Shown: positions 39,375 to 61,527, counted from the first letter of the stretch. The stretch is 64,000 nucleotides of DNA from Candidatus Enterousia sp. (GCA_045546075.1 JAZQCF010000004.1:21157-85156); one strand, 5' to 3'. Translations and numbers: made by a program. Notes: a model not told the origin generated them from the sequence alone.

Positions 39375-40970
39375 ATGAAATTACACGATTTACAAAATGT
39401 ATATGAAATGTTGGTCCGCGCCTGCACAGAAAACAAGAATCGAATTTTCTTTGTTCGACAAAATGAAACCTATGCTGATTTATTGCGGGCGGTGAAACGC
39501 CGCGCGGTTGTGTTGGCAAAAAAATTCAAGATTCGCGCCGGCGATACGGTCGCGTTGTTGTCCGGGAATACACCTGATTTTATAAAATCATATTTCGCCA
39601 TTATTTCCCAAGGTGCACGCGTCTTAATGCTGGATACCGGGTTGGCGCAAAGCGAACATATAAATATGATGGCGCGAACAAATTGCAAATTGGCACTGGC
39701 ACAAAAATCATATTTTATTCCGGATGGACCGGAAATGTTCGACATAGAAACGATTGATGACGCGGACGAAAAAGAATTTGTTGCGGCAAAATGCAATCGC
39801 GATGATTTGGCAATGGTATCGTTCACATCGGGTTCAACGGGCAATCCAAAGATTGTTGGTATAACGCACAATAATTTATTGGCGTTGGCGCACGGTGCGC
39901 AATATTATCGCGCAGTTATACGCCCCAATGATATTTTCTATGGTTTTCTGCCGCTGTATCACATATACGGCGTTGTCATAAATATTATTGCGCCTTTGGT
40001 CCTGGACGGGCGTGTGTTATTACAGCCAATATTAAACCCACGTGAATTTATGCGCGATTTTCAACTATACCGACCAGAGGTTATCCCCGCTGTTCCGCGC
40101 ATTTGGGAAACATTTTATAAAAAGATTATTCAAACCGCGCGCGAAAAACGCGTTTATACTTTGATGCGCATTGTTGTATCTGTACGGCGGATTTTGCGTG
40201 CGATTGGCTTAAACGGAATTGTGCGGCGCGTAACAAAACCGGTTCACGATATATTCGGTGGAAACACGCGCGTATTGGTTTCGGCGGGCGCAACACTTAA
40301 ACCATCGATTCGCAAATTTTATGAAAGTATGGGATTTGTTGTTGGTGATTGCTATGGATTGACCGAAACAACGGGTCCGGCAAATTTTAATTTTGCATTT
40401 CCATTGCCGGACGGTTCTATGCATTATGCGGGACCATTGGATGGGAACGAGATAAAAATCCATAATCCGGACAAACACGGCATTGGCGAGATATGGGTTC
40501 GTGGCGAAATGGTTATGCCGAAATATATTGATAACGATGCCGCGAACACAGACGCGTTTGAAGACGGTTGGTATAAAACCGGTGATATTGGCGTGATTGA
40601 TTCGCGTGGCCGATTGACCGTCAAAGGGCGCAAAAAACAGGTTATTGTTTTGGACAGTGGTAAAAATGTATATCCCGATGAATTGGAAGATTTATATATG
40701 CAAAATGATGAAATCCTGGCGGCGGCGGTATTTGAATACAGCATAAACGGGAAAATCGTTCCGTTTGCCGTGTTCCAGGTTACCCCCGGAACCACAATGT
40801 CGCACGTTGCCATGTTGGTCAAGGCATCGAACCTTAAAATTGCGCCGTATAAATGGGTGAATAATTTTGCAATAACCGAAAATGAATTACCACAAACATC
40901 GGCAAAAAAGATAAAACACTTTATGGTGCGCGAAATGTTGGATGCCGGCAAATTCGAAGTGCATAAATAG
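39375..40970 (+). CDS. AMP-dependent synthetase/ligase (long-chain acyl-CoA synthetase-like)
   Basis: SFTSGSTGNPKIV (AMP-binding motif), YGLTETTG, and TGDIG...GRKK. The ORF track starts at 39345; the ATG at 39375 has a better RBS. Confidence 0.75.
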   Translation: MKLHDLQNVYEMLVRACTENKNRIFFVRQNETYADLLRAVKRRAVVLAKKFKIRAGDTVALLSGNTPDFIKSYFAIISQGARVLMLDTGLAQSEHINMMARTNCKLALAQKSYFIPDGPEMFDIETIDDADEKEFVAAKCNRDDLAMVSFTSGSTGNPKIVGITHNNLLALAHGAQYYRAVIRPNDIFYGFLPLYHIYGVVINIIAPLVLDGRVLLQPILNPREFMRDFQLYRPEVIPAVPRIWETFYKKIIQTAREKRVYTLMRIVVSVRRILRAIGLNGIVRRVTKPVHDIFGGNTRVLVSAGATLKPSIRKFYESMGFVVGDCYGLTETTGPANFNFAFPLPDGSMHYAGPLDGNEIKIHNPDKHGIGEIWVRGEMVMPKYIDNDAANTDAFEDGWYKTGDIGVIDSRGRLTVKGRKKQVIVLDSGKNVYPDELEDLYMQNDEILAAAVFEYSINGKIVPFAVFQVTPGTTMSHVAMLVKASNLKIAPYKWVNNFAITENELPQTSAKKIKHFMVREMLDAGKFEVHK

Positions 40971-41030
40971 TGGGTAGTGGTTAGTGTTAGTGGTTAGTGT
41001 TTAGTAAAACCCGCGGGAATCCGCGGGTTT
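40965..41030. repeat. AAATAG-TGGGTAGTGGTTAGTGTTAGTGGTTAGTG repeat plus terminator hairpin
   Basis: 34 nt identical to 49471-49504. Followed by AAACCCGCGGGAATCCGCGGGTTT. Confidence 0.6.
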
Positions 41031-41049
41031 ATATTCACATACCAAGACA

Positions 41050-42291
41050 CTAGTTATTACAAACGGCGGTGTATGGATACACACTTTTCGATGTGTCTAT
41101 GGTGCCGGCACCGCAATCCAGGCAATTAAACTTTCGATTTTGGGAATGTGCCGAATCAAATGGAACATTGACACCCGAAACCGCAGGAACATTTACAAGA
41201 TAGTCACGATTTGGAAAACCGAAATAAAACGCACGTGACGCGCCGGCGCATTCCGCCGCACGCCCCGGATAACACGTCGGGGATGCCAATTTTGTTTCAT
41301 CGGGCACACACACCGCATCACACGTTTCTTCGTCTATGACCATTTTCTCGCAATCTGTACAGGATGTGGTTGCCAAACGTAAAGTTGCCCCGCCCCGCCC
41401 GCGAATGGCGCGCGAACCGGCCGCCGCACATTTAGATGCAGCCTTGGCTTTATTTGGGTCTTCAACGCATTCCCATTCCAATGTTTCATAATTCAACCGT
41501 GCCAGCATATTATTCGGGCACGTCCGTTCACCAAACGGGTTTATACATTCCCATACATTATCAACTATGACGGCGGTCTGTTCGCCCGAACACAGTGGTT
41601 TACGCGATTCATCCGGCACGCATTCCAATAATGTAGAATCCCAAATCATATCGCCACCGCAACTTGTCTTCAAATTATATCCAATACATTGCCACCGGCC
41701 AAATCTGTATGTTTTTGTCGTGCCAACGGGACAGGTGATATCGTTTATGACGGCACCCGTAAAAACACGTGTTGGATCAGGTGTTTCGTAATGGGTCATA
41801 TATATCAACTGGCCATCCTGTAAATCTAAACTTTTTTGAATCGCATCTGGCACACCACGTTTCGCGGTCGTTCCCCCCGCCAAAACTATACCTTCTTGAA
41901 ATATACCAAGTGTGCCACTGGTGGAAAAATTTTTCTCTAATATTTCCATCATTTCATTATAGTCAGATGTGTGTAATGCATCGGTCGTTGTGATAATAAA
42001 ACTGTATTGTGGTCGCTTGGTCCCGGATGCATCACACGGCGTTATCGAAGAACGCGAATCCATACAGACAAATTCACTTTTAACACCATATTGTTCAATA
42101 CATACATCTTCGAACCGACCGCCGGCGATTTGCGCATTGTGCGCCGCGATGGCGCATTCCGCGATTGAACGTAAATCAGCCACGGAAATCGCATATTCTG
42201 CCTCCTGTTCGGGAATACGCGCAGACGGCGCAAAGAACATATAGTATCCCGCCATAAAAACCGATATTAATAATACCAGAAAAATATTCAT
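41050..42291 (-). CDS. membrane-anchored cysteine-rich hypothetical protein
   Basis: N-terminal TM and many paired Cys. No family recognised. Confidence 0.5.
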   Translation of the reverse strand: MNIFLVLLISVFMAGYYMFFAPSARIPEQEAEYAISVADLRSIAECAIAAHNAQIAGGRFEDVCIEQYGVKSEFVCMDSRSSITPCDASGTKRPQYSFIITTTDALHTSDYNEMMEILEKNFSTSGTLGIFQEGIVLAGGTTAKRGVPDAIQKSLDLQDGQLIYMTHYETPDPTRVFTGAVINDITCPVGTTKTYRFGRWQCIGYNLKTSCGGDMIWDSTLLECVPDESRKPLCSGEQTAVIVDNVWECINPFGERTCPNNMLARLNYETLEWECVEDPNKAKAASKCAAAGSRAIRGRGGATLRLATTSCTDCEKMVIDEETCDAVCVPDETKLASPTCYPGRAAECAGASRAFYFGFPNRDYLVNVPAVSGVNVPFDSAHSQNRKFNCLDCGAGTIDTSKSVYPYTAVCNN

Positions 42292-42364
42292 CTTTCTCCC
42301 TTGCGATTTAATAAAACTCTAAGTATTATATAAATAAATTTCAAGAAGATTTTTAATTCAACGG

Positions 42365-42841
42365 GTGCGTAATATGAAAAAAATTCTGTTGTTGTTATTT
42401 TTATGCGGATGTGGTTTCAGGCCGATGTTTTCTGGTGACAATACCAAAATCTATGTTCCGGTAATAAGTGGTATAAACGGTATAGAATTGCGTAATGCGC
42501 TAAACACTAAATTCGGTGGTCCACATAACGATGCACCGTACACACTGCGCATAACATTGAACAATCCGGTTACCAAATACAAGGCATTGGAACCAACCGG
42601 GGATGCAACCTGGCAAGAGGTACAATTAAGTGCAAAATATGTACTGGAACACAACGGCGATGTAATCGCCACCGGTAATGAAGTCGCCGCAGAATCCTAT
42701 ACATTTGTACGATATTTGGTTGCGGCAAACGCGTCATATAATAATGCGGTTGCAAACACTATTACGGTTTTGGCGGATAAAATTGGCACCCGCGCCATTG
42801 CCCAGGTCGCCGAACACGAAAGCGGGATAATAAAACAATGA
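42365..42841 (+). CDS. lptE: LPS-assembly lipoprotein LptE-like
   Basis: Lipobox LFLCGCG and size. Sits directly upstream of holA, the conserved lptE-holA arrangement. Confidence 0.5.
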   Translation: MRNMKKILLLLFLCGCGFRPMFSGDNTKIYVPVISGINGIELRNALNTKFGGPHNDAPYTLRITLNNPVTKYKALEPTGDATWQEVQLSAKYVLEHNGDVIATGNEVAAESYTFVRYLVAANASYNNAVANTITVLADKIGTRAIAQVAEHESGIIKQ

Positions 42842-43827
42842 AGTGGAAAGAAACCGATTTTAACAAAGGATTACAATCTGTCCGTGGTGTATTAATATAT
42901 GGCCCCGATGCGGGTTTGGTTGACGAATTGTGTGATAAATCCATTGATATTTTATCCATTGAAAAAGATAATATTTTTGCATTGGATTCCGGCGAACTGC
43001 GCGACAAACAGGATGCACTTTTTGCCGAAGCCTGCACCCCGTCTATGTTCGGCGGGCGAAAAATGGTCATAATATCAAACGCCGGCGATTCAGATGCAAA
43101 AATTATCAAAGATTTAATTGAACATCCGGGTTTGGATGCAATGGTAATTGTTACCGCCGGTGATTTGCGCGCGGGCGGTACGTTACGCGCAACATTTGAA
43201 GGTGGCGAAAATATCGCCGCCGTTGCCTGCTATACCGATGATGCGCGAACACTGGAAACATTGATAAGAAATGAATTATTTAACAATGCCGGCATTAAAC
43301 AAATTTCCCCAGATGCAATGGCGTATATGTTAAATCACCTTGGTGGGGACCGTGGAATCACACGTGGATTTTTGGGTAAAATTGCACTGTATGTTGATGA
43401 TAAAAAAACCGTTGATTTGGACGACGCAGAAAAATGCCTGCCGGATACAGGGGCGGCGAATACAGATGATTTTTTATATTCTCTGACGGCGGGACATATT
43501 CAACAAACGATGCTGGCGTTGGACCGTCTGTTATATGATAATGCCGAACCAAATATGTTGGTTCGTATGTTAGACCGGCATTTCAAAACATTACTGACCG
43601 CGGTGGTGGATGGTCAATTACCGCGCCTGTTTTGGAAGGTCGCAGATAAATTTAACCTGGCCATGAAAATTTGGTCGGGGGCGGACATTTCGGCCGTGTT
43701 GGTTCGACTTAATGAGCTTGAGGCACAGATTCGAACAACCGGTATGCCGGCCGAAATTTTGTTACGCGATTTCGCATTAAAATTAGTGTTAAAAACATAT
43801 AAAATGTCTATTAAACGGAGGAATTAA
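42838..43827 (+). CDS. holA: DNA polymerase III subunit delta
   Basis: Length, position after lptE, and the N-terminal VLIYGPDAGLVDE clamp-loader fold pattern. Confidence 0.65.
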   Translation: MKWKETDFNKGLQSVRGVLIYGPDAGLVDELCDKSIDILSIEKDNIFALDSGELRDKQDALFAEACTPSMFGGRKMVIISNAGDSDAKIIKDLIEHPGLDAMVIVTAGDLRAGGTLRATFEGGENIAAVACYTDDARTLETLIRNELFNNAGIKQISPDAMAYMLNHLGGDRGITRGFLGKIALYVDDKKTVDLDDAEKCLPDTGAANTDDFLYSLTAGHIQQTMLALDRLLYDNAEPNMLVRMLDRHFKTLLTAVVDGQLPRLFWKVADKFNLAMKIWSGADISAVLVRLNELEAQIRTTGMPAEILLRDFALKLVLKTYKMSIKRRN

Positions 43828-43828
43828 A

Positions 43829-44596
43829 ATGTTGGCATCTGTGTATGCACCAAAAGATTTTAAGCGTTTACGTGTTGTTGGCGATTTGGTTGCGCGGTGT
43901 TTTGATTACATAACACCACACATTCACGCGGGCGTATCAACCGGTGAAATCGACCGGTTGGTCGCAGAATTTTTACGCGCAAATGGGGCACGTTCTTCGG
44001 ATTTGGGATATATGGGTTACCCGAAAAGTATTTGCACATCGGTCAATGATGTAATTGTGCACGGCATCCCAAGTGATGATGTTATATTGAAAGACGGCGA
44101 TATTGTTAATGTTGACCTTACCGCGGAATACAAGGGGTTTCACGGTGATTCTTCGCGTATGTTTATGATTGGCAACGTTTCACCACGTGCGCGCGAATTG
44201 GTTCAAACGTGCCAAGATGCATTAAATGCAGCGATTGCAGTGTGTGCACCGGGCGTACCATTATCCGAAATTGGTAAAACGATTGAGGCCGTTGTTAAAC
44301 CGCACGGTTTTTCCATATCACGTGACTTTGTTGGGCACGGCATTGGCAAGGTTATGCACGATGACCCACAAATATTTCATTTCTATGATAAAATGTGGGA
44401 CAAGGTTAAAATGGTTCCGGGGTTGGTTTTCACAATCGAACCGATGATAAACACGGGAAAACCTGATTGTAAAATTGATGCGGACGGTTGGACGGCGCGG
44501 ACGGTTGATGGCGGATGGTCGGCACAATGGGAACACACGTTGGGAATTACCGAAGACGGTGTCACAATATTTACAGAAAAAATGATTCAAGAATAA
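43829..44596 (+). CDS. map: type I methionyl aminopeptidase
   Basis: ICTSVNDVIVHGIP, DIVNVDLT, and FVGHGIG...H....W.EHT metal-binding residues. Confidence 0.9.
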   Translation: MLASVYAPKDFKRLRVVGDLVARCFDYITPHIHAGVSTGEIDRLVAEFLRANGARSSDLGYMGYPKSICTSVNDVIVHGIPSDDVILKDGDIVNVDLTAEYKGFHGDSSRMFMIGNVSPRARELVQTCQDALNAAIAVCAPGVPLSEIGKTIEAVVKPHGFSISRDFVGHGIGKVMHDDPQIFHFYDKMWDKVKMVPGLVFTIEPMINTGKPDCKIDADGWTARTVDGGWSAQWEHTLGITEDGVTIFTEKMIQE

Positions 44597-44597
44597 A

Positions 44598-45290
44598 ATG
44601 TCAACCAAAGAACCTGATTTATCTTTGCGCGCGGGGCATCGCGAAAGATTACGTCAAAATTTTCTTGATGATAAATTGGCAAAGTATGAAACATTGGAAC
44701 TGTTATTAAGTTATGCGATTCCACGGCGTGATGTTCGTCCACTTGCACGAATGTTATATAATAAATTTGGTGGAATGTTTCCAATATTGTCGGCATCTAT
44801 TGATGATTTATGCACGGTTCGTGGCATGGGCAAAAACACCGCAATTTTTATCAAGGTTGTTCAAAAAATTTTATTGGATGGATATGAATGTAAATTCAAA
44901 GACACACCAATTTTACACGATTATGAACAACTGTGTAATTATTGTAAACTGATGTTGGGTCACAAAAATATTGAAGAGGTTCATATATTATACCTGGACG
45001 AAGAAAAAAGATTGATGGAAAATCAACTGCACAGTACGGGAACATATAACGAATCATCACTGTATGATGTTGAAATTGTAAAGCACGCAATTTCTATTGG
45101 TGCCAAGGCGGTTGCCGTTGTACATAATCATCCACGACCACATACTTCGTTTTCGGCCCAAGACAAAGCGGTTACAATTAAATTAAAAGAAAAACTGAAC
45201 GCCGTTGGTATAGAATTGGTTGACCATTATGTTGTGTCGGGCGACATACTGTATGCAATGTCCGAATTTCCAATATACACCGGCAATTAA
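44598..45290 (+). CDS. radC: RadC-family JAB-domain protein
   Basis: HNHPRPHTSFSAQDKAVTIKL is the JAMM/RadC motif. Confidence 0.8.
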   Translation: MSTKEPDLSLRAGHRERLRQNFLDDKLAKYETLELLLSYAIPRRDVRPLARMLYNKFGGMFPILSASIDDLCTVRGMGKNTAIFIKVVQKILLDGYECKFKDTPILHDYEQLCNYCKLMLGHKNIEEVHILYLDEEKRLMENQLHSTGTYNESSLYDVEIVKHAISIGAKAVAVVHNHPRPHTSFSAQDKAVTIKLKEKLNAVGIELVDHYVVSGDILYAMSEFPIYTGN

Positions 45291-45736: not shown

Positions 45737-45739
45737 GCG

Positions 45740-46621: not shown

Positions 46622-46703
46622 CTGCGCTTCCTAAAAACCTTTCGGGACGATTATATCACATTTTAGGGTTGAACGCATACAAAAAATATCTTAAAATGAC
46701 AAT

Positions 46704-47188: not shown

Positions 47189-47244
47189 TATCGCGTTTTT
47201 TTCGGTTGTTATTTTTTTTCAAATGTTCTAAGTTTTATGTTGCT

Positions 47245-49476
47245 ATGGTTAAGGAAATTATTGAAAGAATTGATTCACAACAACTGGCGGACGCGCTGTC
47301 AACGCGGTATTTGTCGTACGCGGTAAGCACGATTGTGTCGCGCGCCCTGCCCGACGTGCGGGACGGTTTGAAACCGGTGCATCGGCGCATTTTGTATTCT
47401 ATGTTGCGGCAAAAATTGTCGCCCAGTGCCGCGTTTCGTAAATGCGCAACGGTGGTTGGCGATGTGTTGGGTCACTATCATCCGCACGGCGATTCGTCGG
47501 TTTATGACGCAATGGTCCGCCTGGCCCAGGATTTTTCCGTACGTTATCCACTGATTGATGGCCAGGGTAATTTTGGGAACATTGACGGCGACCCCCAGGC
47601 GGCATATCGTTACACTGAATCCAAGATGACCGATGCGGCGATGCTGATTATGGACGGCATAGATGAAGACAGTGTTGATATGATGCCGAACTTTGACGGC
47701 ACCACAACCGAACCGGTCGTTATGCCGGGCGCGTTTCCAAACCTGTTGGCAAACGGCGGGATGGGAATTGCCGTTGGTATGGCAACAAACATCCCAACCC
47801 ACAATGTGGCCGAGGTTTGTGATGCCCTGAGCCTTATGGTTGATAAACCTGAATCCACCACCGCCCAGATTATGAAGAAAATGGTTGGCCCCGATTTCCC
47901 AACCGGTGGTGTTTTAATTGATGATTTTGATACGATTGTCAAAAACTATGAAACCGGGCGCGGCGCGTTTCGCATTCGGTGCAAATATGAAATTGAAGAA
48001 TTGGAACGCGGCGGATACCAGGTTGTAATTACCGAAATTCCATACGGCATTATTAAATCCAAGATGGTGGAACAAATCGGCGAATTGATTGATGCCAAAA
48101 AATTACCACTGATTGACGATATTATTGATGAATCAACAACCGATGTTCGCATTGTTATAACACCCAAATCGCGCAATATTCCGGTGGATAAAATGATGGC
48201 GCACCTGTTTGCGATGACGGATGCGGAATACAAATTCAATATGAATTTCAATGTTATTGATTCCAACGGCGCGCCACGTGTGATGGGCATTCGCGATGTA
48301 TTGTTGGAATTTATCGCGCACCAGAAAAATGTCTTGCTGCGCCGGACCAAATGGCGTTTGGGCAATATCGACCGGCGGTTAGAGATTTTGGGCGGGCTGC
48401 TGATTGTGTATTTGAATTTGGACCGCGTGATTGAGATTATCCGCACCGAAGACGATCCTAAGGCCGTATTGATGGCGGAATTCAGTTTGACTGAAATTCA
48501 GGTTGAATCAATTTTGAACACACGCCTGCGCGCGTTGCGCAAACTGGAAGAAATGGAAATTCGGCGCGAAGACAAAGAACTGCGTGTGGAACGCGAACAA
48601 TTATTGGCCCTGTTGGGCGATCCAGAAATTCAAAATGCCCAGATTAAGGCCTGGTTCGCCGACATTAAAAAACAATACGATAAAAAGACCATACTGGGCC
48701 GGCGGCGCACAACATGGGCACCATTGACCGAAAACATAGTGGTTGATGCCGAAGAATTTATCGAAAAAGAACCCGTCACGATTATTCTGTCAACAATGGG
48801 TTGGATTCGCGCGGCGCGTGGGCACCTGGATTTGAATGCGTTGGATTTGAAATTCAAAGAAGGCGATGAATTACAATATGCGTTCCACGCAATGACGAAC
48901 GATAAAATAAATCTGTTCGGGTCATCGGGCCGTATGTTCACCCTTGCCGCGAACGATTTACCGTCTGCGCGCGGGTTTGGGGAATCGGTACGTATGATGG
49001 CGGACATTGGTGCAGAAGAATCCATTGTGAACGCGTTTGTGTTGAATACGGCGACAAAATACTTGGTCGTGTCGCGACACGGGAACGGATTCATTGTTGC
49101 CGGCGAAAATTGTGTTGCACAAACCCGTACCGGGAAACAGGTTATGAATGTTGACGATAAAAATCCTGCGGCATTCTGTGTGCCGGTCACGGGCGATACA
49201 ATCGCAATGTCCGGTTCAAACGACAAGATTTTGATATTTGCCACCGCCGAAGTGCCAGAAATGATTCGTGGCAAGGGTGTAATTTTACAAAAATATAATG
49301 CCGAACGGACATATGTGTTGGATGTGATGTTCTTTGACGCGGCGGACGGTTTTGGTTGGACAACCGGGCGCGGAACAACAAAACTGGACGATTGGAAACC
49401 GTGGGTGGGCAAACGTGCAACCCAAGGTCGCACCATTCCGGTCGGTTTCCCACGCAGTGGAAAGTTCGGGAAATAG
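47245..49476 (+). CDS. parC: DNA topoisomerase IV subunit A (or a short GyrA-type type IIA topoisomerase A subunit)
   Basis: [28 protein letters not shown] and the GyrA-box region. Its 744 aa favour ParC. Start at ATG 47245. Confidence 0.75.
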
Positions 49477-49583
49477 TGGGTAGTGGTTAGTGTTAGTGGT
49501 TAGTAGAGTCTGGAATAATTTTGTAATTATGAACTTATTCCAGAAATTACTAACCACTATCCACTTGCACTAACCATTAACAA
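49471..49583. repeat. AAATAG-TGGGTAGTGGTTAGTG... repeat forming a long composite hairpin (bidirectional terminator) between parC and glyQS
   Basis: Repeat at 49471-49504. Inner hairpin GAGTCTGGAATAA...TTATTCCAGA. Partially inverted copy TACTAACCACTATCCACT at 49548-49565. Confidence 0.6.
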
Positions 49584-50945
49584 TTATCCATTAACAATTT
49601 CCAACACACGTTTTGGAACATCGACGATTTTTATGCGTTCCTGGTCCATGGTGTCACGGTGGCGCATTGTTACCATACCGTCTTCCAATGTTTGGTGGTC
49701 AACAGTTATGCATACCGGCGTGCCGATTTCATCGTGCCGGCGATAGTTTTTACCAATGTTGCCTGAATTTTCTAATTCTATGCGCCCGATGCCAAGTGCG
49801 CGCAAATCGTTTTCGATATTTTCGGCCAACCCCACCAATTCCGGCACATTGCGCGCCAACGGTATGACCGCCGCCTTGACCGGGGCCAATTTTGGTTTCA
49901 ATTTCAACACGGTGCGGGTTTTACCATCCGCCAATGTTTCTTCGGTATATGCCTCTATCATCAACGCCATCATCGCGCGGTTCACGCCCATTGCGGTTTC
50001 GATTACATATGGAATAAAACTTTCGCCCGATTGCGGGTCTGAATAGGCCAATTTAACGGTGCTGTCGCGGTTTTCCATAACATGCGCGGCAATTTTGAAT
50101 TCGTTTTGCGATTTTGTATGTGAACCCAAATCAAAGTCTTGGCGATTATGAACACCTTCGACTTCGTCAAATCCGTCCGGAAATTCGTATTCGATGTCGC
50201 CGGCGGCCTTGGCATAGTGGGCCAATTTTTCGTGCGGTGTAAAACGCAATTTGTTCGCCGGAATACCCAACACATTGGTCCACCACGCAATGCGGTTTTC
50301 GCGCCACGCGGCAAAGTATTTTTCATCATCACCCGGACGCACAAAGTATTGCATTTCGGCCTGTTCAAATTCGCGCATACGGAACACAAACCCGCGCGGG
50401 GAAATTTCATTACGAAACGCCTTGCCAATCTGGGCAATGCCGAACGGCAATTTATGCGGCGTGGAATCAAGAACATTTTTGAAATTGATATATGTTGTGG
50501 TCGCCGTTTCCGGTCGCAGGTACGCGTTTATTTCGCCATCCGCCACCGCCCCGATGGAAAGCCCCATCATTAATTGATATTCGCGCGGCGGCATTAAATC
50601 GGTTGAACCACAGTTGTCGCATTTTGTTTGATCGCGCATTTTATCTTGGCGCATACGGGCACCACATTTTTTACATTCAACCAATGGGTCGGAAAATCCA
50701 CCTTCGTGCCCGGAATATTTCCACATTAAACGGTTTCCAATCAGGGACGCATCCAAACCTTCGATATCATTGCGGGAATATACCATTGCGTTCCACCATG
50801 CGTTGCGAATATTGCGCATCAGTTCCACGCCGTATGGGCCATAATCGTATGTCCCACCCATTCCGCCATATATTTCGGAACCCGTAAAAATAAACCCGCG
50901 CCGTTTGCACAGTGCCACAATATCATTTACATTTTTCGCCGGCAT
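49584..50945 (-). CDS. glyQS: glycine--tRNA ligase, homodimeric (alpha2) type
   Basis: MPAKNVNDIVALCKRRGFIFTGSEIYGGMGGTYDYGPYG matches the alpha2-type GlyRS N-terminus. Class II motifs and the anticodon-binding domain are present. Confidence 0.9.
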   Translation of the reverse strand: MPAKNVNDIVALCKRRGFIFTGSEIYGGMGGTYDYGPYGVELMRNIRNAWWNAMVYSRNDIEGLDASLIGNRLMWKYSGHEGGFSDPLVECKKCGARMRQDKMRDQTKCDNCGSTDLMPPREYQLMMGLSIGAVADGEINAYLRPETATTTYINFKNVLDSTPHKLPFGIAQIGKAFRNEISPRGFVFRMREFEQAEMQYFVRPGDDEKYFAAWRENRIAWWTNVLGIPANKLRFTPHEKLAHYAKAAGDIEYEFPDGFDEVEGVHNRQDFDLGSHTKSQNEFKIAAHVMENRDSTVKLAYSDPQSGESFIPYVIETAMGVNRAMMALMIEAYTEETLADGKTRTVLKLKPKLAPVKAAVIPLARNVPELVGLAENIENDLRALGIGRIELENSGNIGKNYRRHDEIGTPVCITVDHQTLEDGMVTMRHRDTMDQERIKIVDVPKRVLEIVNG

Positions 50946-53490: not shown

Positions 53491-53509
53491 GTTTTTTTGT
53501 GTCAGTTCC

Positions 53510-53584: not shown

Positions 53585-53589
53585 AAAAT

Positions 53590-53618
53590 TCAAACCGACC
53601 TTTTGGGTCGGTTTTTTC
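53590..53618 (+). terminator. rho-independent terminator after the tRNA pair
   Basis: AAACCGACC-TTTT-GGGTCGGTTT followed by TTTC. Confidence 0.55.
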
Positions 53619-53690
53619 TTTGTTTTCTAATACTTTCACGAGTTCGAAAGTTGGATATCAAAAACAGACACTGTTTTTCTCATTTACGAA

Positions 53691-54791: not shown

Positions 54792-54846
54792 AATAAAATC
54801 CTATACTAATATAGAATTATTATATCACAAAATTTGTAGAAATGTT

Positions 54847-55620
54847 TTATTTTGATTCTGCTTTTTGTATCTTGTCCCGAAGTACAGGTTCATTTACTTT
54901 TATCCATTCAAATGCTTTATCCATAAAATCATAAATATCTTTACGGTTCAGATAAAATTTCTTCATGGTATCAAAAATTAATTCGCCCTTTATTGTCATA
55001 TCGTAGAAGTATGAATAAGCAATATATTTTGGTTGTTCTATTAAATCATTTATGGCTGAATTACGAATAAGTGTTTCAACTACTATCTCTGACAACAACC
55101 ATTTGATATTTGGAAAATCGTATTCTGCTGGATTGTCTTGAAAATACTTGTTCCAGAAATAGAACCAAGCAAAATGGGTTATTTCATGTAATGCTGTTGT
55201 CATTGCATATGTTGGATCAAAATAATGATAAATATCAAAAGTATGTGTTTCAATATCACGCGGGCAAATTGGGTTTAATCCAACCTCGGCAACCATATCA
55301 TTCAAAATACCTCTGCAATCATTATCAAAAGCAGAACTGTATGCACTATTCAATTTGTTTGCTATTTTTTCCCATTCCGCACTAAACATATTTATAGAGT
55401 TTGCTATGATTGGTTTTCTTTTCCCCGCCTGAATTTTCATTTGTTCAGTAATATATTCAAATCTTTTTTCTTCTGGTAAAGATATAGCATATTCATAATT
55501 CAAATCAGGGTATGCCTTGAACAACTGCTTTTGCCACCAGACAGTCGTTCCGTCTTTCTGGTGGAACAGTATAAAATCTAAATCACTGTCAAAATCTTTC
55601 TGTTGCCAAGTTAGTTTCAT
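54847..55620 (-). CDS. hypothetical protein with an HExxH motif (HEITHFAW); possible zinc metallopeptidase
   Basis: The motif was read directly; there is no other support. AT-rich. Confidence 0.4.
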   Translation of the reverse strand: MKLTWQQKDFDSDLDFILFHQKDGTTVWWQKQLFKAYPDLNYEYAISLPEEKRFEYITEQMKIQAGKRKPIIANSINMFSAEWEKIANKLNSAYSSAFDNDCRGILNDMVAEVGLNPICPRDIETHTFDIYHYFDPTYAMTTALHEITHFAWFYFWNKYFQDNPAEYDFPNIKWLLSEIVVETLIRNSAINDLIEQPKYIAYSYFYDMTIKGELIFDTMKKFYLNRKDIYDFMDKAFEWIKVNEPVLRDKIQKAESK

Positions 55621-55751
55621 GTAATAACCTTGTAGTATTCCTCTTAATTATATCACAAAATCTGCAAAAATGTTTTTATTTCTTTCCCGAATGACAACAA
55701 ATCATGAATAAAATCAACTCGTGAATTGCACAAATGGCCCTGCCGGAATAA

Positions 55752-56300
55752 TCATCTCTTTGGTTTATAAACGGTATGACCATGTACCACATAATCTTTT
55801 AGAACTTGTTCGCCCGCATCTGTTTCAATTTGTCCATAAACGGTTATACCGCGTTTTTTGAATTCGTTATACCAGTTTTGTTTGAAACCTTCGTCAAATC
55901 CGGTGATTTTTGTGACACGTTCAGATGGAACCCCATAATAAATCGCCTTTATCCCGGACCACATAATTGCCCCCAGGCACATCATACACGGTTCAGATGT
56001 CACATATATACTTAAATCATACGGCGATAAATCATAATTCCCCAGTTTCTTTTCAGCTAACTTTATCGCGTTTATTTCGGCGTGATTATTACTGCAAGAT
56101 TTATCCACGACATTATTGGCGGCCTTGGCGACAAGATTTCCGTTTGAATCATAAACAGCGGCCAAAAACGGCCCATGACCTTTATTGATATATTTTTTTA
56201 ATTCTTGCTGTAAATCCAGTATAATTTTACCGGCCTTAATCAATTTTAAATTATCAATCTTTTCGTTGGCGATTACAGATGTTTTATTAGTTTTTTGCAT
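55752..56300 (-). CDS. cytidine/deoxycytidylate-family nucleoside deaminase (TadA/guanine-deaminase-like)
   Basis: HAEINAI and SEPCMMCLGAI zinc-binding motifs. Start at ATG 56300 with an AGAGGGA RBS. Confidence 0.7.
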   Translation of the reverse strand: MQKTNKTSVIANEKIDNLKLIKAGKIILDLQQELKKYINKGHGPFLAAVYDSNGNLVAKAANNVVDKSCSNNHAEINAIKLAEKKLGNYDLSPYDLSIYVTSEPCMMCLGAIMWSGIKAIYYGVPSERVTKITGFDEGFKQNWYNEFKKRGITVYGQIETDAGEQVLKDYVVHGHTVYKPKR

Positions 56301-56488
56301 GTCGTTCCCTCTTGGGGAAAGTATGACATAATTTGTAATAAATTGCAAAACAGGTCTTGAAAAAAACTTAATATTTTTTCCCAGACCACCACAAATCGAG
56401 TATCCCGTTGGCGTGTGAATCGGTTAAATAAAACGACCACCAAATGGTGGCTGTTTTATTATTTGCTTTTGTTTTTTCGTCCGAACAA

Positions 56489-56794
56489 TTAGGCACGACG
56501 TTGTTCGCATGCCGTCACAAATTCTTTGTAATCTTTCGGTTTCATGAAAAATTGAAAATCTTCGGTGCCATCGTTCGCAATCGTATAGACAAACCGGGAA
56601 GAATAAACCGCATAACTGTTGTCGATACTCCATTTGATTGGGCGTTTGGTGGATGTCTGGAATTCTTCTGGGTCAACCTGTTTTGCCACGGTTGCATTTG
56701 GTATCAAATTCATCAAGTTTTGAAAGTTTAATTTGTATGTTTCTTGTTTTTCTTTTTCAATTTTATCATTTTTTTTACCCTTTATTGCACGCAT
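56489..56794 (-). CDS. hypothetical protein
   Basis: ORF only. Confidence 0.3.
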   Translation of the reverse strand: MRAIKGKKNDKIEKEKQETYKLNFQNLMNLIPNATVAKQVDPEEFQTSTKRPIKWSIDNSYAVYSSRFVYTIANDGTEDFQFFMKPKDYKEFVTACEQRRA

Positions 56795-56913
56795 TTTAGC
56801 AATTTAAACGCCTTTGTCAATTATTGCATATTGATTTTTTGTGTGATTTGTGATATAATTCGTACATTAAATCGGTGGCGTTTTGCCGCCGTTTTTTATT
56901 TGTGGGGAAAATT

Positions 56914-57414
56914 ATGAAATTCAGTAATCAAGGAATTGAACTGTTAAAACAATTAGAGGGCCATGTCAAACGTGGCAACATACATATTGTCTATGATGAT
57001 AAAACCGGCCGGCCTATTGACGGCGGCGCGCCATTGCCACGTGGCGCAACAATCGGTTATGGTCATTTGATAAAACCGGGCGAAGATTTTACCGGCGGCA
57101 TCACCGAACGCGTGGCGACCGAATTATTGTGTGCCGACATTGCCGCGGCCCAGCGCGCCGTTCAAAACAATATCACGGTGCCGCTTACACAAAACCAATA
57201 TGATGCATTGGTGATTTTTGCGTATAATATCGGCACAAAAAACTTTGCGAATTCCACCGTGGTAAAATACATCAACAACCCAAATTTCCACAGTTCAATA
57301 TACCCAAACCTGGAATCGGCGTGGCGCGCGTGGAATAAATCGGGTGGGCGCGTAATGGCGGGGCTGAACCGGCGGCGGGATGCAGAATTACGCCTGTTCG
57401 TGCGCGGTATTTGA
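56914..57414 (+). CDS. GH24 phage-type lysozyme
   Basis: GIELLKQLEG...TIGYGH and ...QYDALVIFAYNIG match the T4-lysozyme-family catalytic region. RBS GGGGAAA. Confidence 0.75.
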   Translation: MKFSNQGIELLKQLEGHVKRGNIHIVYDDKTGRPIDGGAPLPRGATIGYGHLIKPGEDFTGGITERVATELLCADIAAAQRAVQNNITVPLTQNQYDALVIFAYNIGTKNFANSTVVKYINNPNFHSSIYPNLESAWRAWNKSGGRVMAGLNRRRDAELRLFVRGI

Positions 57415-57445
57415 CATATCCTGACGGTGTGGTATAATTTATACT

Positions 57446-57559
57446 ATGAAGAAAATAATATTTGTTTTATTGGGCTGTGCGTTGGTGTTGGGTGCGTGCG
57501 GGGTTAAATCCGGCCTGGAACGTCCCGATGGACCACTACGCGATTATCCGGTGTATTAA
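57446..57559 (+). CDS. 37-aa lipoprotein-like small ORF (MKKIIFVLLGCALVLGACGVKSG...)
   Basis: Not in the ORF track (under 60 aa). TGGTATAAT -10-like element lies just upstream. The stop overlaps the ATG at 57561. Confidence 0.35.
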   Translation: MKKIIFVLLGCALVLGACGVKSGLERPDGPLRDYPVY

Positions 57560-57560
57560 A

Positions 57561-58973
57561 ATGGTGATGCGGTCATCGATTTTTCTGCGCAAGAATCCAA
57601 CCGGACCGGACGGGGTTGGCAGTGTTGTTCCGGTTGACGTGATTCCGCGTGACGATGTGTGCACCATCTATATTCCCGGTAATGGAATTAAAACATCGCC
57701 CCAGGCGGAAAAACTGGGCGGCATTGTATCAAACGAAGTTTTTGGAAATATAAGCAATGTTGCGAACTATGTTGTCGTTTATAATCCGTTGGATTTAGAT
57801 GACGATACGGCGGAACGCGCAATTCAAATTGACCGGCGCGGCGGAAACTTTGTTCCGCGATTGAGCGGCATTACCCACATTTATTTAACCGAGAAAAATC
57901 TGCGTGATGTATTTCGACGCAAAATTGCGCCGGTATTAAGTGCCGGCGGAATACGGTCTTTTGGAAAAATGCGTTTTGCGTTGGATGGTGATACAGAAAT
58001 TATAATTGATGAATTTACAAAACTGTTGCGTGAACATATGGAAAAAATCGGCCTGGGGGAAAATGTTGGCGCAATGACACGACACGCGATTGCGAATATG
58101 CACCCATATAACGCGTATCGTCCCGAATATATAGAAAGCCTGTTTAACAAAATAATTTTGCCGCGCATATCGGGCGATGATGGTTTGCGTATTGATGCGA
58201 ATATTGCGGCACGAAATATTCGCAAAATGAATATACTAACGCATTGCCACGGCGCGTATGTTGCGCAAATGATGGTAGAATTGGCCGAATCTAAAATGCG
58301 TGAATTGGGATATGCGCCCGCCGAAGTTAATAAAATTTTATCACAATTATTGGTGGTGGCGTTTGCGCCCGCATGCACACTGGAAAAATCAAAGTGCCGA
58401 TTTGTTGGTTTTATGTCTTTATCTGATTCTATGATTGACGGCGCGCATAATTGGGTCGAGGTTTTCGCATGGAAAAATATGAGCGATGAAAGAGTGCGAT
58501 TTAATCAATGGGCCCCAGATTGGGAATGGAAATTGCCACCCATGGTACTGGAACACAATAACGTGGCAACATTTGTTGTTAAACGCCGATTTGAATATGA
58601 TAACGAAGTTGATGGACCAAACAATACGGTCATTGCTGAACATAATAATTTGCATTACTATCCGCGTTTTGCAACCGCGGACGGAAGATTCCTGGCGACA
58701 ATGGCGCGCAATGTAACATTATCTGGAATCCGGAATTCTTTGGCACAACGTGATGCTTTTACCCCGTTACCGGATACGGCAAATTTGGTGTTGGACGGGC
58801 AACACGATGCGACTTTACGGCAAATATTTCAAAATATGACCGAAAGCGGTCGTGCGTTTATGGTGGATGTGTATAAATTTGCGATGGCGAACCTGCGAAA
58901 AATTCATCCCAGAAACAATGAAAACATCCGGGATATAAAATTCGATATCGTATCATCGCGCCACGCACAATAA
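57561..58973 (+). CDS. hypothetical protein (~470 aa)
   Basis: ORF 57462..58973, with the start moved to the ATG after the small lipoprotein ORF. No family recognised. Confidence 0.45.
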   Translation: MVMRSSIFLRKNPTGPDGVGSVVPVDVIPRDDVCTIYIPGNGIKTSPQAEKLGGIVSNEVFGNISNVANYVVVYNPLDLDDDTAERAIQIDRRGGNFVPRLSGITHIYLTEKNLRDVFRRKIAPVLSAGGIRSFGKMRFALDGDTEIIIDEFTKLLREHMEKIGLGENVGAMTRHAIANMHPYNAYRPEYIESLFNKIILPRISGDDGLRIDANIAARNIRKMNILTHCHGAYVAQMMVELAESKMRELGYAPAEVNKILSQLLVVAFAPACTLEKSKCRFVGFMSLSDSMIDGAHNWVEVFAWKNMSDERVRFNQWAPDWEWKLPPMVLEHNNVATFVVKRRFEYDNEVDGPNNTVIAEHNNLHYYPRFATADGRFLATMARNVTLSGIRNSLAQRDAFTPLPDTANLVLDGQHDATLRQIFQNMTESGRAFMVDVYKFAMANLRKIHPRNNENIRDIKFDIVSSRHAQ

Positions 58974-58983
58974 CGAAAATTTG

Positions 58984-59068
58984 TGGTGGGCCCGGGGGGA
59001 TTTGAACCCCCATGGGTTTCCCCACCGGAACCTAAATCCGGCGCGTCTACCAATTTCGCCACGGGCCC
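58984..59068 (-). tRNA. tRNA-Leu (TAG)
   Basis: Acceptor GGGCCCG/CGGGCCC, anticodon loop TTTAGGT, long variable arm, T-arm GGGGG-TTCAAAT-CCCCC, 3' ACCA. Confidence 0.85.
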
Positions 59069-59162
59069 AATTACGTAAAAATTATGTTATGATAAAAAAG
59101 ACTTGATTTCCAGTAAAAAATAACCTAAAATCCCGTGCAGTACAAATAAAAAGGGCAATAAA

Positions 59163-59334
59163 ATGGCATCCAAGAAAGGCAGCAAAGAAATTATCAAACT
59201 GGAAAACAAAGAAACCGGTTATTTTTACACTGTGACAAAAAACAATAAAACCGCCACGGGTAAGGTTAAACGTCGTAAATACGACCCGAAACTGCGTAAA
59301 CACGTTGAAATGACCGAAGGCAAAATGTCACACT
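59163..59334 (+). CDS. rpmG: 50S ribosomal protein L33
   Basis: MASKKGSKEIIKLENKETGYFYTVTKNNKTATGKVKRRKYDPKLRKHVEMTEGK is the L33 pattern. 57 aa, so missed by the ORF track. Confidence 0.85.
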
Positions 59335-59390
59335 AGTGATTAGTGGATAGTGTTAGTAGTTAGTGCGGGCGCAATCGCGCCCGTTTTCTA
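59332..59390 (+). repeat. diverged TAG-TGATTAGTGGATAGTGTTAGTAGTTAGTG repeat plus terminator hairpin
   Basis: Same motif family as 40965 and 49471. Hairpin GCGGGCGCAATCGCGCCCG followed by TTTTC. Confidence 0.5.
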
Positions 59391-59615
59391 TTTGTGTTTT
59401 GGGGGCACGCGCCGACACCGCAATAAACAAAACCCGTGATAAAATATGGATTGTAAAATATTGTCCGGAATCACTTCTTTACCCTGTTCATATTTATGTA
59501 ATTGTCGCACAGATATTGAAAACATCTTTGCGACGTCATCTGCGCCCAGGCAATTATGCCGCCGCGCGTTACGCATTGCGCGCCCAAAATATTTTGAATC
59601 AACCAATGTAACCAT
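59388..59615 (-). CDS. small XRE-family HTH transcriptional regulator
   Basis: NCLGADDVAKMFSISVRQLHKYEQG is an HTH_XRE motif. Confidence 0.5.
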   Translation of the reverse strand: MVTLVDSKYFGRAMRNARRHNCLGADDVAKMFSISVRQLHKYEQGKEVIPDNILQSIFYHGFCLLRCRRVPPKHK

Positions 59616-59847
59616 TTTATACCTCCATTTTGGTTATAAAAACACCGTCAATGACGAATTGACGGTTGGAGGCTGAAAACTATACTTGTTTAGATAGTGT
59701 CTCTTATTCAATATATTCGAGACCCTCCAACCAAAGTGGTGGAGATTTAACAAGTAGGGATTTTTCAGACCCCGCATCGGTCGTCAACCAATGCGAAAAT
59801 ATTATAAATAAAAACGGCCGCATTTGCAACCGTTTTTACACTAACCA

Positions 59848-61527
59848 CTATTTCATTGTTGGGATTATTAGTTCGTCATTATAGAACGACAGGAATTTTC
59901 GCCCGGACCCACAATAGAACTTTTCCAACGAATCGTTATATTCACGTGTCGCCTGGACAAAGCGGTCTTCAATGTCACTTTGCGCACCCTGGTACCCGGA
60001 AAATCCGCCCAATGCGCCACCAACACCCGCGCCCTTTAATGTAGAACCAAGGCGCGCCTTGTTTGAAAAGTCCACAACACCGCCATCATCGGCATCTAAC
60101 TTAATTGGGTTAAAATCATCAATGTTGTACGCGGTGGCCTTGTCCGCATCGGCGGATTTTTCGTCCGTGGCTTCATTACCGCACTTGTACGGATTGCCTT
60201 GCGAATCACGCAGGCATATTGTCGCCTCTTTGTGAACACTGCGCCAATTATACCAATCTTTGGCTTTGATGCCGAACGCAGAATCTATGAAATTAACAAT
60301 AACCGCCGGCGATGGTGCACCCGCGCGGCGCGCAACGTTGGCCGCAAAATATGCGCCGTTCTCACTGCGGGTCATTTCGCGATTTGTATCATCTTCATCA
60401 AAGGTGTAATGTTGGGCATCGGCCAATAAAGCATCGACATCTTTGCCGGACAATTCGATTTGGGTTATTTTTTTGCCACCCTTGGTGCTGATGCTCTTGA
60501 ACACCAATGTCCCATCACGTTGACAGTTTTTATTAGAATCATCACAGACCAGTATTTCGCCTTTGTTGGGGCTGTAATACACATTGGTTGGCAGATTTTT
60601 ATCGTCTGTTTTTTGCAGATTTCCCCACAGACACTTGGTTTCAACACCATTATAGGTACATTTTTCCACGCGCAGGACCGCATCGCCAGACGCCATCATA
60701 TTTCCAACAATTCCGCCCGCCGCCGCGTTCACGCCCGTGTGCAGTATAACATCGCCGGCAACCTTGCCTGAATAAGTACTTGCCGTCATCAGGGCCGCAC
60801 CAATCGCCGCGCCCGCCGCGGTGGATTTTAATTTCTCTTCGTTGGTTCCAAACAGACCGTCACTGCCGATTTCCGATTTGCCAACCAAATTCCCTGCGAT
60901 GCCCGACACAACCGCCGCCGCCGCAATTTTCAAACCGGCCTTGTTCTTTTGTTCTTCGTTCAAGACGTTTATAACATCCGCACGCGTGGGGGCATTATCC
61001 GCCGGGAATACAACCTGGGTAATTTCGGGTAAATATGCAGACGTTGGAAAATCCGATATATTACATTTTATCACATCGCCCGCCGCCAATTTCCCGCGCG
61101 CCACGGTCTTATATTCCAAACCACCGTTTGCACCAATCGCGCGCATTTCAACAACGGCGACACAGGTTGGTGCGCCACCCGCACCACGACCAATTGTTGG
61201 ACGGTCCCAAATGAATTCACCATCGGGATAAATATTTGCGCAATTATTTAACGTTTCAACACTTGTGTTCGTGTCTTCACCACGGCGTATTTGTTCCGCC
61301 AATTCGGTATTTGCCACCGGTATAGGCAAAGCCTGCTCTGCAACCGTATTTACCGGCGTATCGGCGGCGATAGAATTATAATATTGCTGTTCCAGACCAA
61401 CAACATTTTTATATGTTCCGGCATAATTCCGCGACAGGTTCCCAACACGAATACCCGCAAACGCGTGCCCTGCGACAATCGCACCCAGCATTGAATAAAA
61501 AATAACACTGTTTCTTGTCATTCGCAT
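59848..61527 (-). CDS. large secreted hypothetical protein (Gly/Ala-rich, scattered Cys)
   Basis: Signal peptide MLGAIVAGHAFAG. RBS GGGAGAG. The 3' end reads AAATAG followed by TGGTTAGTG on the minus strand. Confidence 0.5.
   Translation of the reverse strand: MRMTRNSVIFYSMLGAIVAGHAFAGIRVGNLSRNYAGTYKNVVGLEQQYYNSIAADTPVNTVAEQALPIPVANTELAEQIRRGEDTNTSVETLNNCANIYPDGEFIWDRPTIGRGAGGAPTCVAVVEMRAIGANGGLEYKTVARGKLAAGDVIKCNISDFPTSAYLPEITQVVFPADNAPTRADVINVLNEEQKNKAGLKIAAAAVVSGIAGNLVGKSEIGSDGLFGTNEEKLKSTAAGAAIGAALMTASTYSGKVAGDVILHTGVNAAAGGIVGNMMASGDAVLRVEKCTYNGVETKCLWGNLQKTDDKNLPTNVYYSPNKGEILVCDDSNKNCQRDGTLVFKSISTKGGKKITQIELSGKDVDALLADAQHYTFDEDDTNREMTRSENGAYFAANVARRAGAPSPAVIVNFIDSAFGIKAKDWYNWRSVHKEATICLRDSQGNPYKCGNEATDEKSADADKATAYNIDDFNPIKLDADDGGVVDFSNKARLGSTLKGAGVGGALGGFSGYQGAQSDIEDRFVQATREYNDSLEKFYCGSGRKFLSFYNDELIIPTMK

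Follow-up and report, generated by a model that had tools for sequence, protein, structure and literature searches.

In Xanthomonas and Nostoc, tandem repeats of G-rich heptamers (GGGAATC or GGGGA(C/T)T, in 2 to >20 units) are over-represented in non-coding DNA (Rehm et al. 2015; PMC4692102). Their G-rich strand is the coding strand, they lie 0-50 bp from a stop codon, some overlapping it, and they are found near the open reading frame (ORF) on their 5' side whatever its orientation, the neighboring genes being unrelated in function; at the same locus, their length and sequence vary between close relatives, inverted pairs can form stem-loops, and no function is known for them (PMC4692102). Another heptamer, TAACTGA, forms direct repeats in marine Beggiatoaceae, cyanobacteria and some Bacteroidetes, in short sets of 2-6 copies at many genes and likewise with unknown function (MacGregor 2015; PMC4679880). 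Here, we analyze a 64,000-nucleotide stretch of DNA from Candidatus Enterousia sp. (GCA_045546075.1, JAZQCF010000004.1:21157-85156; hereafter the window), in which arrays of the heptamer TAGTGGT start exactly on the stop codons of six genes. These arrays are probably, although by no means certainly, hypervariable simple-sequence repeats that form a variant, peculiar to this lineage, of the G-rich heptamers repeated in other bacteria.

The TAGTGGT arrays share with the Xanthomonas and Nostoc heptamers, the closest described class, the tandem 7-nt units, the proximity to stop codons, the sense orientation, the variable length, the inverted pairs and the unrelated neighbor genes. They differ in that the unit contains a stop codon and has no G3 tracts, that a 13-nt double unit (7 + 6) dominates, that the arrays start in register with the stop codon, to which the others are merely near, and that they are tightly joined to hairpin modules; moreover, the host belongs to an uncultured rumen/gut lineage of Pseudomonadota. 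The TAACTGA repeats are also intergenic, stop-containing tandem heptamers with scattered phylogeny, unrelated genes and gene-tied orientation, but they have another unit sequence, lie mostly just upstream of start codons, where they overlap the ribosome-binding site, whereas the present arrays lie at stops, and are reported without association with hairpin modules (PMC4679880). A full-text literature search for the repeat string returned unrelated primer matches only. What is new here is the TAGTGGT unit and its unusually exact stop-codon register, within a known and unexplained repeat class.

Stop-anchored arrays in the window

The window contains six arrays of the TAGTGGT heptamer, often in the form of the 13-nt pair TAGTGGT-TAGTGT (7 + 6), with 2, 3, 5, 5, 6 and 6 units (Table 1). 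In all six, the stop codon of the gene on the 5' side is the exact start of the array, and the array occupies the whole gap from the last sense codon to the hairpin. A preliminary description, made from the sequence alone, had reported at least four copies with the first TAG serving as the gene's own stop codon; the ORF ends confirm this register for the acyl-CoA ligase, parC, rpmG and 59848-61527(-) genes, and two further copies, at glyS(-) and at the gene of a 413-aa protein(-), had been overlooked. Identical 34-nt copies had also been claimed after the ligase gene and parC, and the same bases, AAATAGTGGGTAGTGGTTAGTGTTAGTGGTTAGT (including the AAA preceding the stop), are indeed present at 40965-40998 and 49471-49504.

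The motif TAGTGNTTAGTG, allowing at most one mismatch, occurs 14 times in the window against 0.30 expected, a count reached in 0 of 100 dinucleotide-preserving shuffles, and Tandem Repeats Finder delineates period-7 and period-13 arrays at 40968-41005, 49474-49504, 49549-49581 and 59334-59365. With at least two head-to-tail 7-nt units beyond chance, the window arrays fall into the class of G-rich heptameric, or long, simple-sequence repeats (Mrazek 2007; Rehm et al. 2015), and all six also have their G-rich strand as the sense strand of the 5'-side gene, within 50 bp past its stop. Cytosine (C) is absent from three plus-strand arrays and from the two-unit copy and occurs once in each of two inverted copies (49547-49586 and 41031-41052); the glyS array reads, on the minus strand, TAA-TTGT TAATGGT TAGTGCA AGTGGA TAGTGGT TAGTAA. 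A search of the window against Rfam at the gathering threshold gave four tRNAs only and no RNA family at the arrays.

TAG or other stop triplets in all three frames, which had been ascribed to the repeat in general, are found in the four long arrays, whereas the two-unit copy 59839-59850 has stops in two frames only. Such coverage follows by itself, without selection, from periods of 7 and 13 nt, neither of which is divisible by 3.

Table 1 Coordinates of the arrays and of the hairpins beside them
Feature	Position	Strand	Remarks
Array 1, six units TAGTGGGTAGTGGTTAGTGTTAGTGGTTAGTGTTTAGT	40968-41005	+	No C; TAG 40968-40970 is the stop of the acyl-CoA ligase family gene 39345-40970
Bidirectional terminator-like hairpin AAAA-CCCGCGG-GAAT-CCGCGGG-TTT	41006-41030	both	Common to the convergent ligase and 413-aa genes
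Degenerate inverted copy TAGTGTCTTGGTATGTGAATAT (minus strand), also read TAG-TGTCTTGGTATGTGAATAT	41031-41052	-	TAG 41050-41052 is the stop of the 413-aa gene 41050-42291(-)
Array 2, five units	49474-49506	+	TAG 49474-49476 is the stop of parC (ORF 47206-49476)
34-nt palindromic module CTGGAATAATTTTGTAATTATGAACTTATTCCAG	49510-49543		Center of the parC-glyS intergenic palindrome
Inverted array TAATTGTTAATGGTTAGTGCAAGTGGATAGTGGTTAGTAA (minus strand)	49547-49586	-	Starts on the TAA stop (49584-49586) of glyS 49584-50945(-); pairs with array 2
Array 3, diverged copy TAGTGATTAGTGGATAGTGTTAGTAGTTAGTG	59334-59365	+	TAG 59334-59336 is the stop of rpmG (ribosomal protein L33, 59163-59336)
rpmG intrinsic terminator GCGGGCGCAATCGCGCCCG, then TTTT	59365-59388	+	Kept in L123 and L124
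Terminator-like hairpin after array 4, TAAAAACGGTTGCAAATGCGGCCGTTTTT (minus strand)	59810-59838	-	Plain in sequence
Array 4, two units TAGTGGTTAGTG	59839-59850	-	TAG 59848-59850 is the stop of the 559-aa ORF 59848-61527(-)

The G-rich strand and regular spacing of the arrays, together with the formation of G-quadruplexes in vitro by a related class (PMC4692102), raise the question of whether the arrays act as G-quadruplexes, as proposed for GGGNATC repeats. This is hardly credible here: G-quadruplex formation is unlikely because TAGTGGT has no G3 tracts, GGG occurs at most once per window array, units have at most GG recurring every 7-13 nt, and runs of three or more G are rare. The at least four G3 tracts of the Rehm subclass are lacking in the window arrays, and four units are not preferred among them.

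Each copy had been described as followed by a GC-rich hairpin and a T-run. A GC-rich stem-loop with a T-run does directly follow the ligase, rpmG and 59850(-) copies, but not the parC and glyS copies; 3' of the parC copy, an AT-rich 34-nt palindrome is followed by the inverted glyS array and there is no T-run. At convergent gene pairs, each gene has one array, and the two arrays together form the outer arms of a long palindrome (40968-41052 and 49474-49586). The latter region, between parC and glyS, folds as a single hairpin of -53.4 kcal/mol (z = -9.1), and the ligase/413-aa intergenic region folds around its GC terminator with -39.6 kcal/mol (z = -6.5). A consensus terminator scanner was not relied upon, as it overlooked the ligase and 59810-59838 hairpins. 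With stops and terminators so arranged, these two intergenic regions are reminiscent of the Omega interposon, an engineered symmetrical cassette in which all-frame stops at both ends flank terminators; the likeness is functional only and is no argument for selection on such a function.

The terminator and ~80 nt downstream of the 559-aa gene (59740-59838) are conserved in the metagenome loci L157, L218 and L221, where they follow longer arrays; since the upstream gene differs there, array 4 sits at the junction of a variable gene and conserved DNA. The 559-aa protein itself is without a family match. Most array-adjacent proteins at 40-64 kb of the window (413, 559, 368, 343, 329 and 293 aa and several small ones) likewise have no Pfam or NCBIfam match, and curated families cover this lineage poorly. 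A 75-aa ORF, 59388-59615(-), converges on the rpmG terminator and appears, by its translation alone, to be XRE-type helix-turn-helix-like.

Orthologous gene ends with and without arrays

The exact GlyRS sequence was matched only on L001 and L002, contigs assembled from public sequencing runs, and hundreds of ligase homologues at 75-95% identity were found in rumen, gut and bioreactor metagenomes. Syntenic loci were ranked by the identity of their ligase: L123 (93%), L124 (84%), L125 and L126 (79%) and L127-L129 (75-78%).

The ligase gene of the window ends with CAT AAA TAG, the array and the hairpin. In L123 it ends with CAT AAG TAA AGAAA and a hairpin, in L124 with TCG AAA TAA TAAT and a hairpin, and in L125 with TTT AAA TAA. 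The array is missing from the orthologous loci L123, L124, L125 and L127, the terminator is wholly different among the window, L123 and L124, and the C-terminus stands at the same position with or without the array (...FEVHK or ...FEVSK). The 413-aa protein ends with ...CNN TAG, 19 nt and TAA-ACCCGCGG in the window and with ...CNN TAA-AAACGCCCGG, directly at the hairpin, in L123, its C-terminal position being the same. For NrdG, an array is present in L125 only (GAC TGA GTGGGTAGTG...), and the protein is equal in length to those of the other four genomes. The GlyRS array occurs in the window and L001 and is absent from L124 and L127, whose orthologues end in other residues; the 559-aa protein has no orthologue among the fetched loci. 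The preliminary description had proposed that the repeat redefined the C-termini of its host genes. As judged from the translated sequences of the ligase, NrdG and the 413-aa protein, C-termini are instead left unchanged by arrays and not redefined, because orthologues without the array end at the same residue position, save for a single-residue case, ZapA of L124. There, an insertion found in this genome only has its second TAG as the stop, and one residue is gained (KISG vs KIG or KIGQ). This zapA-parC insertion of ~125 nt is of the array-hairpin type, is absent from the window, L123 and L125, replaced ~17 nt and has no target-site duplication.

The stop codons themselves are not identical (TAA vs TAG). 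In array-free orthologues, TAA is followed directly by an A-tract and a hairpin, and an intact TAA with A-tract and hairpin is still visible behind several arrays; with the array, TAA (or TAG) has changed to the TAG or TGA of the array, and the distance from stop to hairpin from 0-6 nt to 12-40 nt. Arrays in the relatives likewise start on the stop, which is TAG, TAA or TGA. The presence of arrays at gene ends differs sporadically among the relatives. The parC array is at the same place in the window (5 units), L123 (2) and L124 (5), and also in L181; for rpmG, the window, L123 and L124 have the array in the same position with differing unit numbers, the L124 copy being degenerate and decaying. 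Since L127-L129 have no arrays in ~21 kb each, the arrays seem confined to a subclade.

Length differences between near-identical strains lie within the arrays. Over 14,023 aligned nt, the window and L001 share 98.2% identity, with 219 mismatches and four indels, and all four indels are inside arrays (20 nt in the ligase array; 6, 1 and 1 nt in the glyS array). In L001 and L002, the glyS array has 7 units and a TAG stop, although their GlyRS is identical to that of the window. Copy number at one locus, including that of parC (5, 2 and 5 units), thus varies among close relatives, as it does in heptameric simple-sequence repeats.

Moreover, the ligase array of L001, TAGTGGTTGGTATTTAGTAAAA, is 20 nt shorter than that of the window; relative to it, the window array has a 20-nt insertion and 2 substitutions, and all these changes go towards identity with the parC copy, which is reached over 34 nt. 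A conversion tract or a template switch primed on the shared AAATA would be the simpler reading of this parC-like sequence, because slippage and point mutation are unlikely to give identity. Of the mobile or templated cassette proposed earlier, it is the copying that fits the data, namely the identical copies at non-homologous sites, their presence and absence in close relatives and this parC-like difference from L001.

On one rumen metagenome contig, L169, the ligase gene is succeeded by two arrays with a GC-rich module between them, and these by the parC-downstream terminator and flank of L123 and L181. Either ~8.5 kb was deleted by inter-array recombination or the assembler mis-joined at the repeat.

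Arrays in metagenomes and other phyla

A metagenome scan with the clade-typical 18-mer AGTGGTTAGTGTTAGTGG found at least 120 loci, with 138 arrays among those listed after de-duplication, to which the counts below refer. Most listed loci come from samples whose other contigs have rumen or termite-gut labels. For 80 listed arrays, the position could be tested because an ORF of 100 or more codons on the same strand ends no more than 200 nt upstream. In 26 of these, the first unit opens with the stop codon, and in 11 the array starts 1-8 nt past the stop (typically as TAA-TAGTGG or TAAT-TAGTGG). Thus, 37 of the 80 start within 8 nt of the stop, and the association with gene ends holds beyond the window. 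The stop lies inside the array in another 11, several of which are overshoots of unit extension; 19 arrays lie 9-60 nt downstream, mostly right after the T-run of a terminator (TTTTTT-AGTGG), and 13 lie farther away. A Lys codon AAA before the stop, put forward in the preliminary description as a recurring feature, precedes it in 4 of the 26 listed stop-anchored copies and is not general. A crude neighbor analysis of the listed arrays placed 53 sense-downstream of a gene end and ~32 antisense near a convergent gene end. Part of the antisense arrays are second arms of palindromic units, and the rule that the G-rich strand is the sense strand is not absolute in this sample.

An inverted partner array lies no more than 220 nt downstream in 39 of 135 listed arrays, upstream in none of the 135, and is missing in 96. 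A perfect stem of at least 6 bp follows the array in 30 of 126 listed cases versus 4 in shuffles, and 10 of the 126 have a terminator by strict criteria of GC-stem and T-run. The hairpins after arrays comprise GC-rich terminators, two longer GC-rich modules and the fixed 34-nt palindrome; this heterogeneity speaks against the part of the cassette proposal in which array and terminator form one unit. The arms have 2-14 units, and the central modules are several and unrelated. The 34-nt module, with the consensus CTGGAATAAnTTCGTAATTAYGAAnTTATTCCAG, is of fixed length and a near-perfect palindrome. It was found in 16 distinct copies including that of the window (the others in L152, L156, L162, L174-L176, L182, L184, L187, L200, L217, L219, L237, L239 and L242), nearly all with arrays on one or both sides. 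Its conserved center suggests more than a simple hairpin and may be, for example, a site for a dimeric protein.

Palindromes of this kind are known from the REP/BIME elements of enterobacteria and the REPINs of Pseudomonas, which are mosaics of extragenic palindromes and linkers in alternating orientation; REP/BIME elements have imperfect palindromic units of 20-40 nt, reach about a hundred or more copies per genome and affect mRNA 3' ends. The present arrays resemble them in being extragenic, in many cases where genes converge or operons end, and in a mosaic palindromic architecture. Between the sampled arrays, several hairpin modules, among them the 34-nt palindrome, are met repeatedly. They differ in having tandem heptamers as arms instead of a single imperfect palindrome, in lacking the GTAG-plus-palindrome unit, in their hypervariable unit number and in that no RAYT transposase occurs among the 30 window proteins scanned. 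In line with the mobile termination cassette of the preliminary description, the array-hairpin-inverted array might be a non-autonomous mobile element, of the miniature inverted-repeat transposable element or REP/BIME type, with its transposase elsewhere, its own bidirectional terminator and stops at both ends, the surviving copies being those inserted at gene ends. Such an element would have the inverted termini 5'-TAGTGG...CCACTA-3' and the invariable order of forward array, hairpin and inverted array (39 vs 0) seen here. The fixed-length core of the 34-nt module with its 16 copies, the ~125-nt insertion in L124, the two convergent intergenic palindromes bounded by two stop codons and the wholly different ligase terminators of the window, L123 and L124 are also in its favor.

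We nevertheless regard a mobile element as unlikely. The arms have no defined length, only the 34-nt module among the heterogeneous central hairpins is fixed, and 96 of the 135 listed arrays have no inverted partner. With heterogeneous 3' ends, no unambiguous target-site duplication was found; none of the 30 scanned window proteins is a transposase, the serine recombinase of the window belonging to a low-GC island (see below), and the strain differences are unit-sized indels rather than gain or loss of whole elements. A TA target-site duplication at the ligase and 413-aa copies was considered and rejected, given that TAGTAA is found at 6 of 127 array ends and that the L124 insertion has no duplication; the pattern TA-insert-TA is uninformative because any insert beginning with TAG produces it. 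Kinship with the Correia elements of Neisseria was also rejected. These are small palindromic intergenic elements of defined length with 26-bp terminal repeats and a conserved core, which can affect the expression of adjacent genes and whose inverted repeat begins with TATAGTGGATTAA (PMC5039591, PMC2649163). This beginning resembles the ATAGTGG of array starts, but the resemblance of ~7 bases is at chance level, and the arms of the present arrays are tandem heptamers variable in number.

Among the units of the metagenome sample, 72% start with TAG, 12% with AAG and 9% with TGG. Variant units that preserve TAA or TGA make up ~15%, the commonest variants, AAGTGGT and GAGTGGT, still giving TAA or TGA with the preceding T, and ~16% of the units are without any stop (TGG, CAG and others). 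Selection for a stop in every unit was rejected on these figures. C makes up no more than 5% at every unit position, and the AGTG core is kept across copies.

The stops retained in these variants and the three-frame coverage of the four long arrays in the window would suit an array selected as a set of fail-safe stops and as a spacer that protects the terminator hairpin from being unwound by read-through or frameshifted ribosomes. Consistently, a terminator a few bases past the stop is reported to be repressed, with an efficiency that rises with distance (PMC4824070). The stopless units, the two-unit arrays that cover two frames only and the orthologues that manage without arrays nevertheless make such selection very improbable. 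Any stop-containing unit gives three-frame coverage by itself unless its length is divisible by 3, and a published survey reported no selection for additional downstream stops in bacteria (PMC6764699).

The conserved AGTG core and the avoidance of C also bear on a function at the RNA level. UAG recurs every 6-7 nt in the arrays, which thereby contain at least three (U/G)AG triplets with 2-4 nt spacers. The same geometry of triplet repeats beside a terminator hairpin is found in the sites of HutP (UAG-N4 repeats) and TRAP ((G/U)AG-N2-3 repeats) of Bacillus, to which the arrays are alike in geometry only: each of those sites is a regulatory leader lying upstream of a single operon and having a fixed repeat number, and here many 3' ends carry a variable number. 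By analogy, the arrays could be cis-acting RNA elements of 3' untranslated regions, whose UAG triplets with 3-4 nt spacers would be bound by an oligomeric protein, HutP- or TRAP-like or with a cold-shock domain, whose binding would adjust the read-through or mRNA stability of many genes. The sense-strand arrays right 5' of hairpins or terminators (the six of the window and most syntenic copies) and the parC array, nearly unchanged across ~15% divergent genomes, accord with this, and protein binding has been proposed for the TAACTGA heptamers by MacGregor (PMC4679880). We hold an RNA element to be quite improbable, however, since the unit number varies in near-identical strains, orthologous genes of close relatives lack arrays, 28% of the units do not start with TAG and ~16% have no stop triplet, and the genes served are functionally unrelated. 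HutP, TRAP (TrpBP) and Y1-transposase (RAYT) domains are absent from the 30 window proteins scanned, which for the RNA-binding proteins is a weak argument, as the gene could be elsewhere.

A looser-pattern scan of one genome per species detected arrays, often as inverted pairs, in Cyanobacteria, Planctomycetota, Chloroflexota, Acidobacteriota, Bacteroidota, Firmicutes, Spirochaetes and others. The raw count of such matches means little, because 15 specified bases give thousands of chance matches, and what makes those of the genome collection informative is solely that they continue into long arrays of 3-14 units. In these, the first TAG is the stop of a long ORF only a little more often than the second or the third (roughly 15, 9 and 8 of ~167, respectively). 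The genome-collection loci L003-L122 are arrays in metagenome-assembled genomes of many phyla, often inverted around a hairpin, and a large share are from rumen or termite gut. In viral contigs, three exact units were found at 45 loci for TAGTGGT, 38 for TGATGGT, 13 for TGTAGGT, 10 for TTGAGGT and 3 for TGGTGTA. TAGTGGT as a uniquely favored, universal heptamer was therefore rejected, the composition-matched controls showing it to be common but not unique.

Origin and meaning of the arrays

Collectively, the best-supported reading is that of a slippage-prone repeat tolerated by a compact genome in the short gap that separates stop codon and terminator. Its history may be pictured in four steps. 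The ancestral stop, usually TAA, abuts the terminator A-tract with a gap of 0-6 nt, as the array-free orthologues show. The array would then have entered at the TA of the stop, copied from another array via microhomology (TA or AAATA), presumably by template switching or gene conversion, and would have grown and shrunk by replication slippage, consistent with the observed concentration of indels in arrays. Finally, the first TAG takes over as the stop, as observed in the window. The protein is unchanged because the first TAG of the array becomes the stop. It is likely that the terminator hairpin is thereby shifted 12-40 nt farther from the terminating ribosome and that the hairpin stem between convergent genes becomes much longer, and both changes could alter termination efficiency. 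A dedicated function is not required by any result.

Several observations weigh against tolerated slippage as the whole explanation. Pure slippage accounts neither for the one unit shared by every locus nor for the scarcity of C (no more than 5% per position), as T-to-C transitions should be common. The fixed-length palindromic module of 34 nt is nearly always flanked by arrays, and the inverted partners, lying downstream in 39 of 135 cases and upstream in 0, look structured rather than like a plain microsatellite. The parC arrays of the window and L124 differ by one base despite ~85% identity of the flanking gene, and such near-identity at ~15% divergence points to homogenization or selection. 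Exact stop anchoring (26 arrays) exceeds what random insertion in a gap of 0-8 nt would give (11 at 1-8 nt), about a quarter of the listed arrays run antisense to the gene end or start closest to them, some of these being second arms of inverted pairs, and only a few junctions are behind the microhomology step. Since the avoidance of C, the strict order, the 34-nt module and the near-identity at parC are left unexplained, two of the rivals, the structured mobile element and the function at the RNA level, stay alive.

A further reading can also be imagined, in which arrays and palindromic modules would be a self-propagating stop cassette that inserts between the last sense codon and the stop and whose UAGs would be read by a putative oligomeric RNA-binding protein; we give it very little credence. 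If it were true, terminator read-through or mRNA 3'-end stability would be set by this cassette at about a hundred genes, and the stop-containing heptamer arrays of many phyla would be versions of one system.

Elsewhere in the window, a low-GC island (19431-34600; 32-38% GC vs ~43% in the flanks) adjoins a tRNA gene, 34493-34583(-). Its genes encode an OLD-family AAA/TOPRIM nuclease, three DNA methyltransferases (one fused to a ParB-N domain), an ApeA-like protein and a DUF2924 protein with a large serine recombinase. The island is probably an integrated defense or mobile island and is free of heptamer arrays. At the left edge of the window, a 15/45-nt tandem repeat (3-211) lies within a run of ORFs, and beside it ORF 347-1060(-) matches a phage T7 capsid assembly protein family.

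In many bacterial genomes, no other class of long repeats is as abundant as heptamer simple-sequence repeats, on whose function there is no agreement. The arrays described here provide a clean case, with a stop-codon register, an ancestral array-free state in close relatives and strain-level indels confined to arrays. Through this lineage, it can be tested whether arrays are seeded by microhomology copying or by transposition, and whether a terminator shift of 12-40 nt or a lengthened hairpin between convergent genes has an effect on termination. For annotation, the TAG stops of arrays differ from the TAA of orthologues, and arrays are indel hot spots at which mis-joins of metagenome assemblies may occur. 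If the arrays are merely tolerated junk, they exemplify where a compact genome can afford junk.

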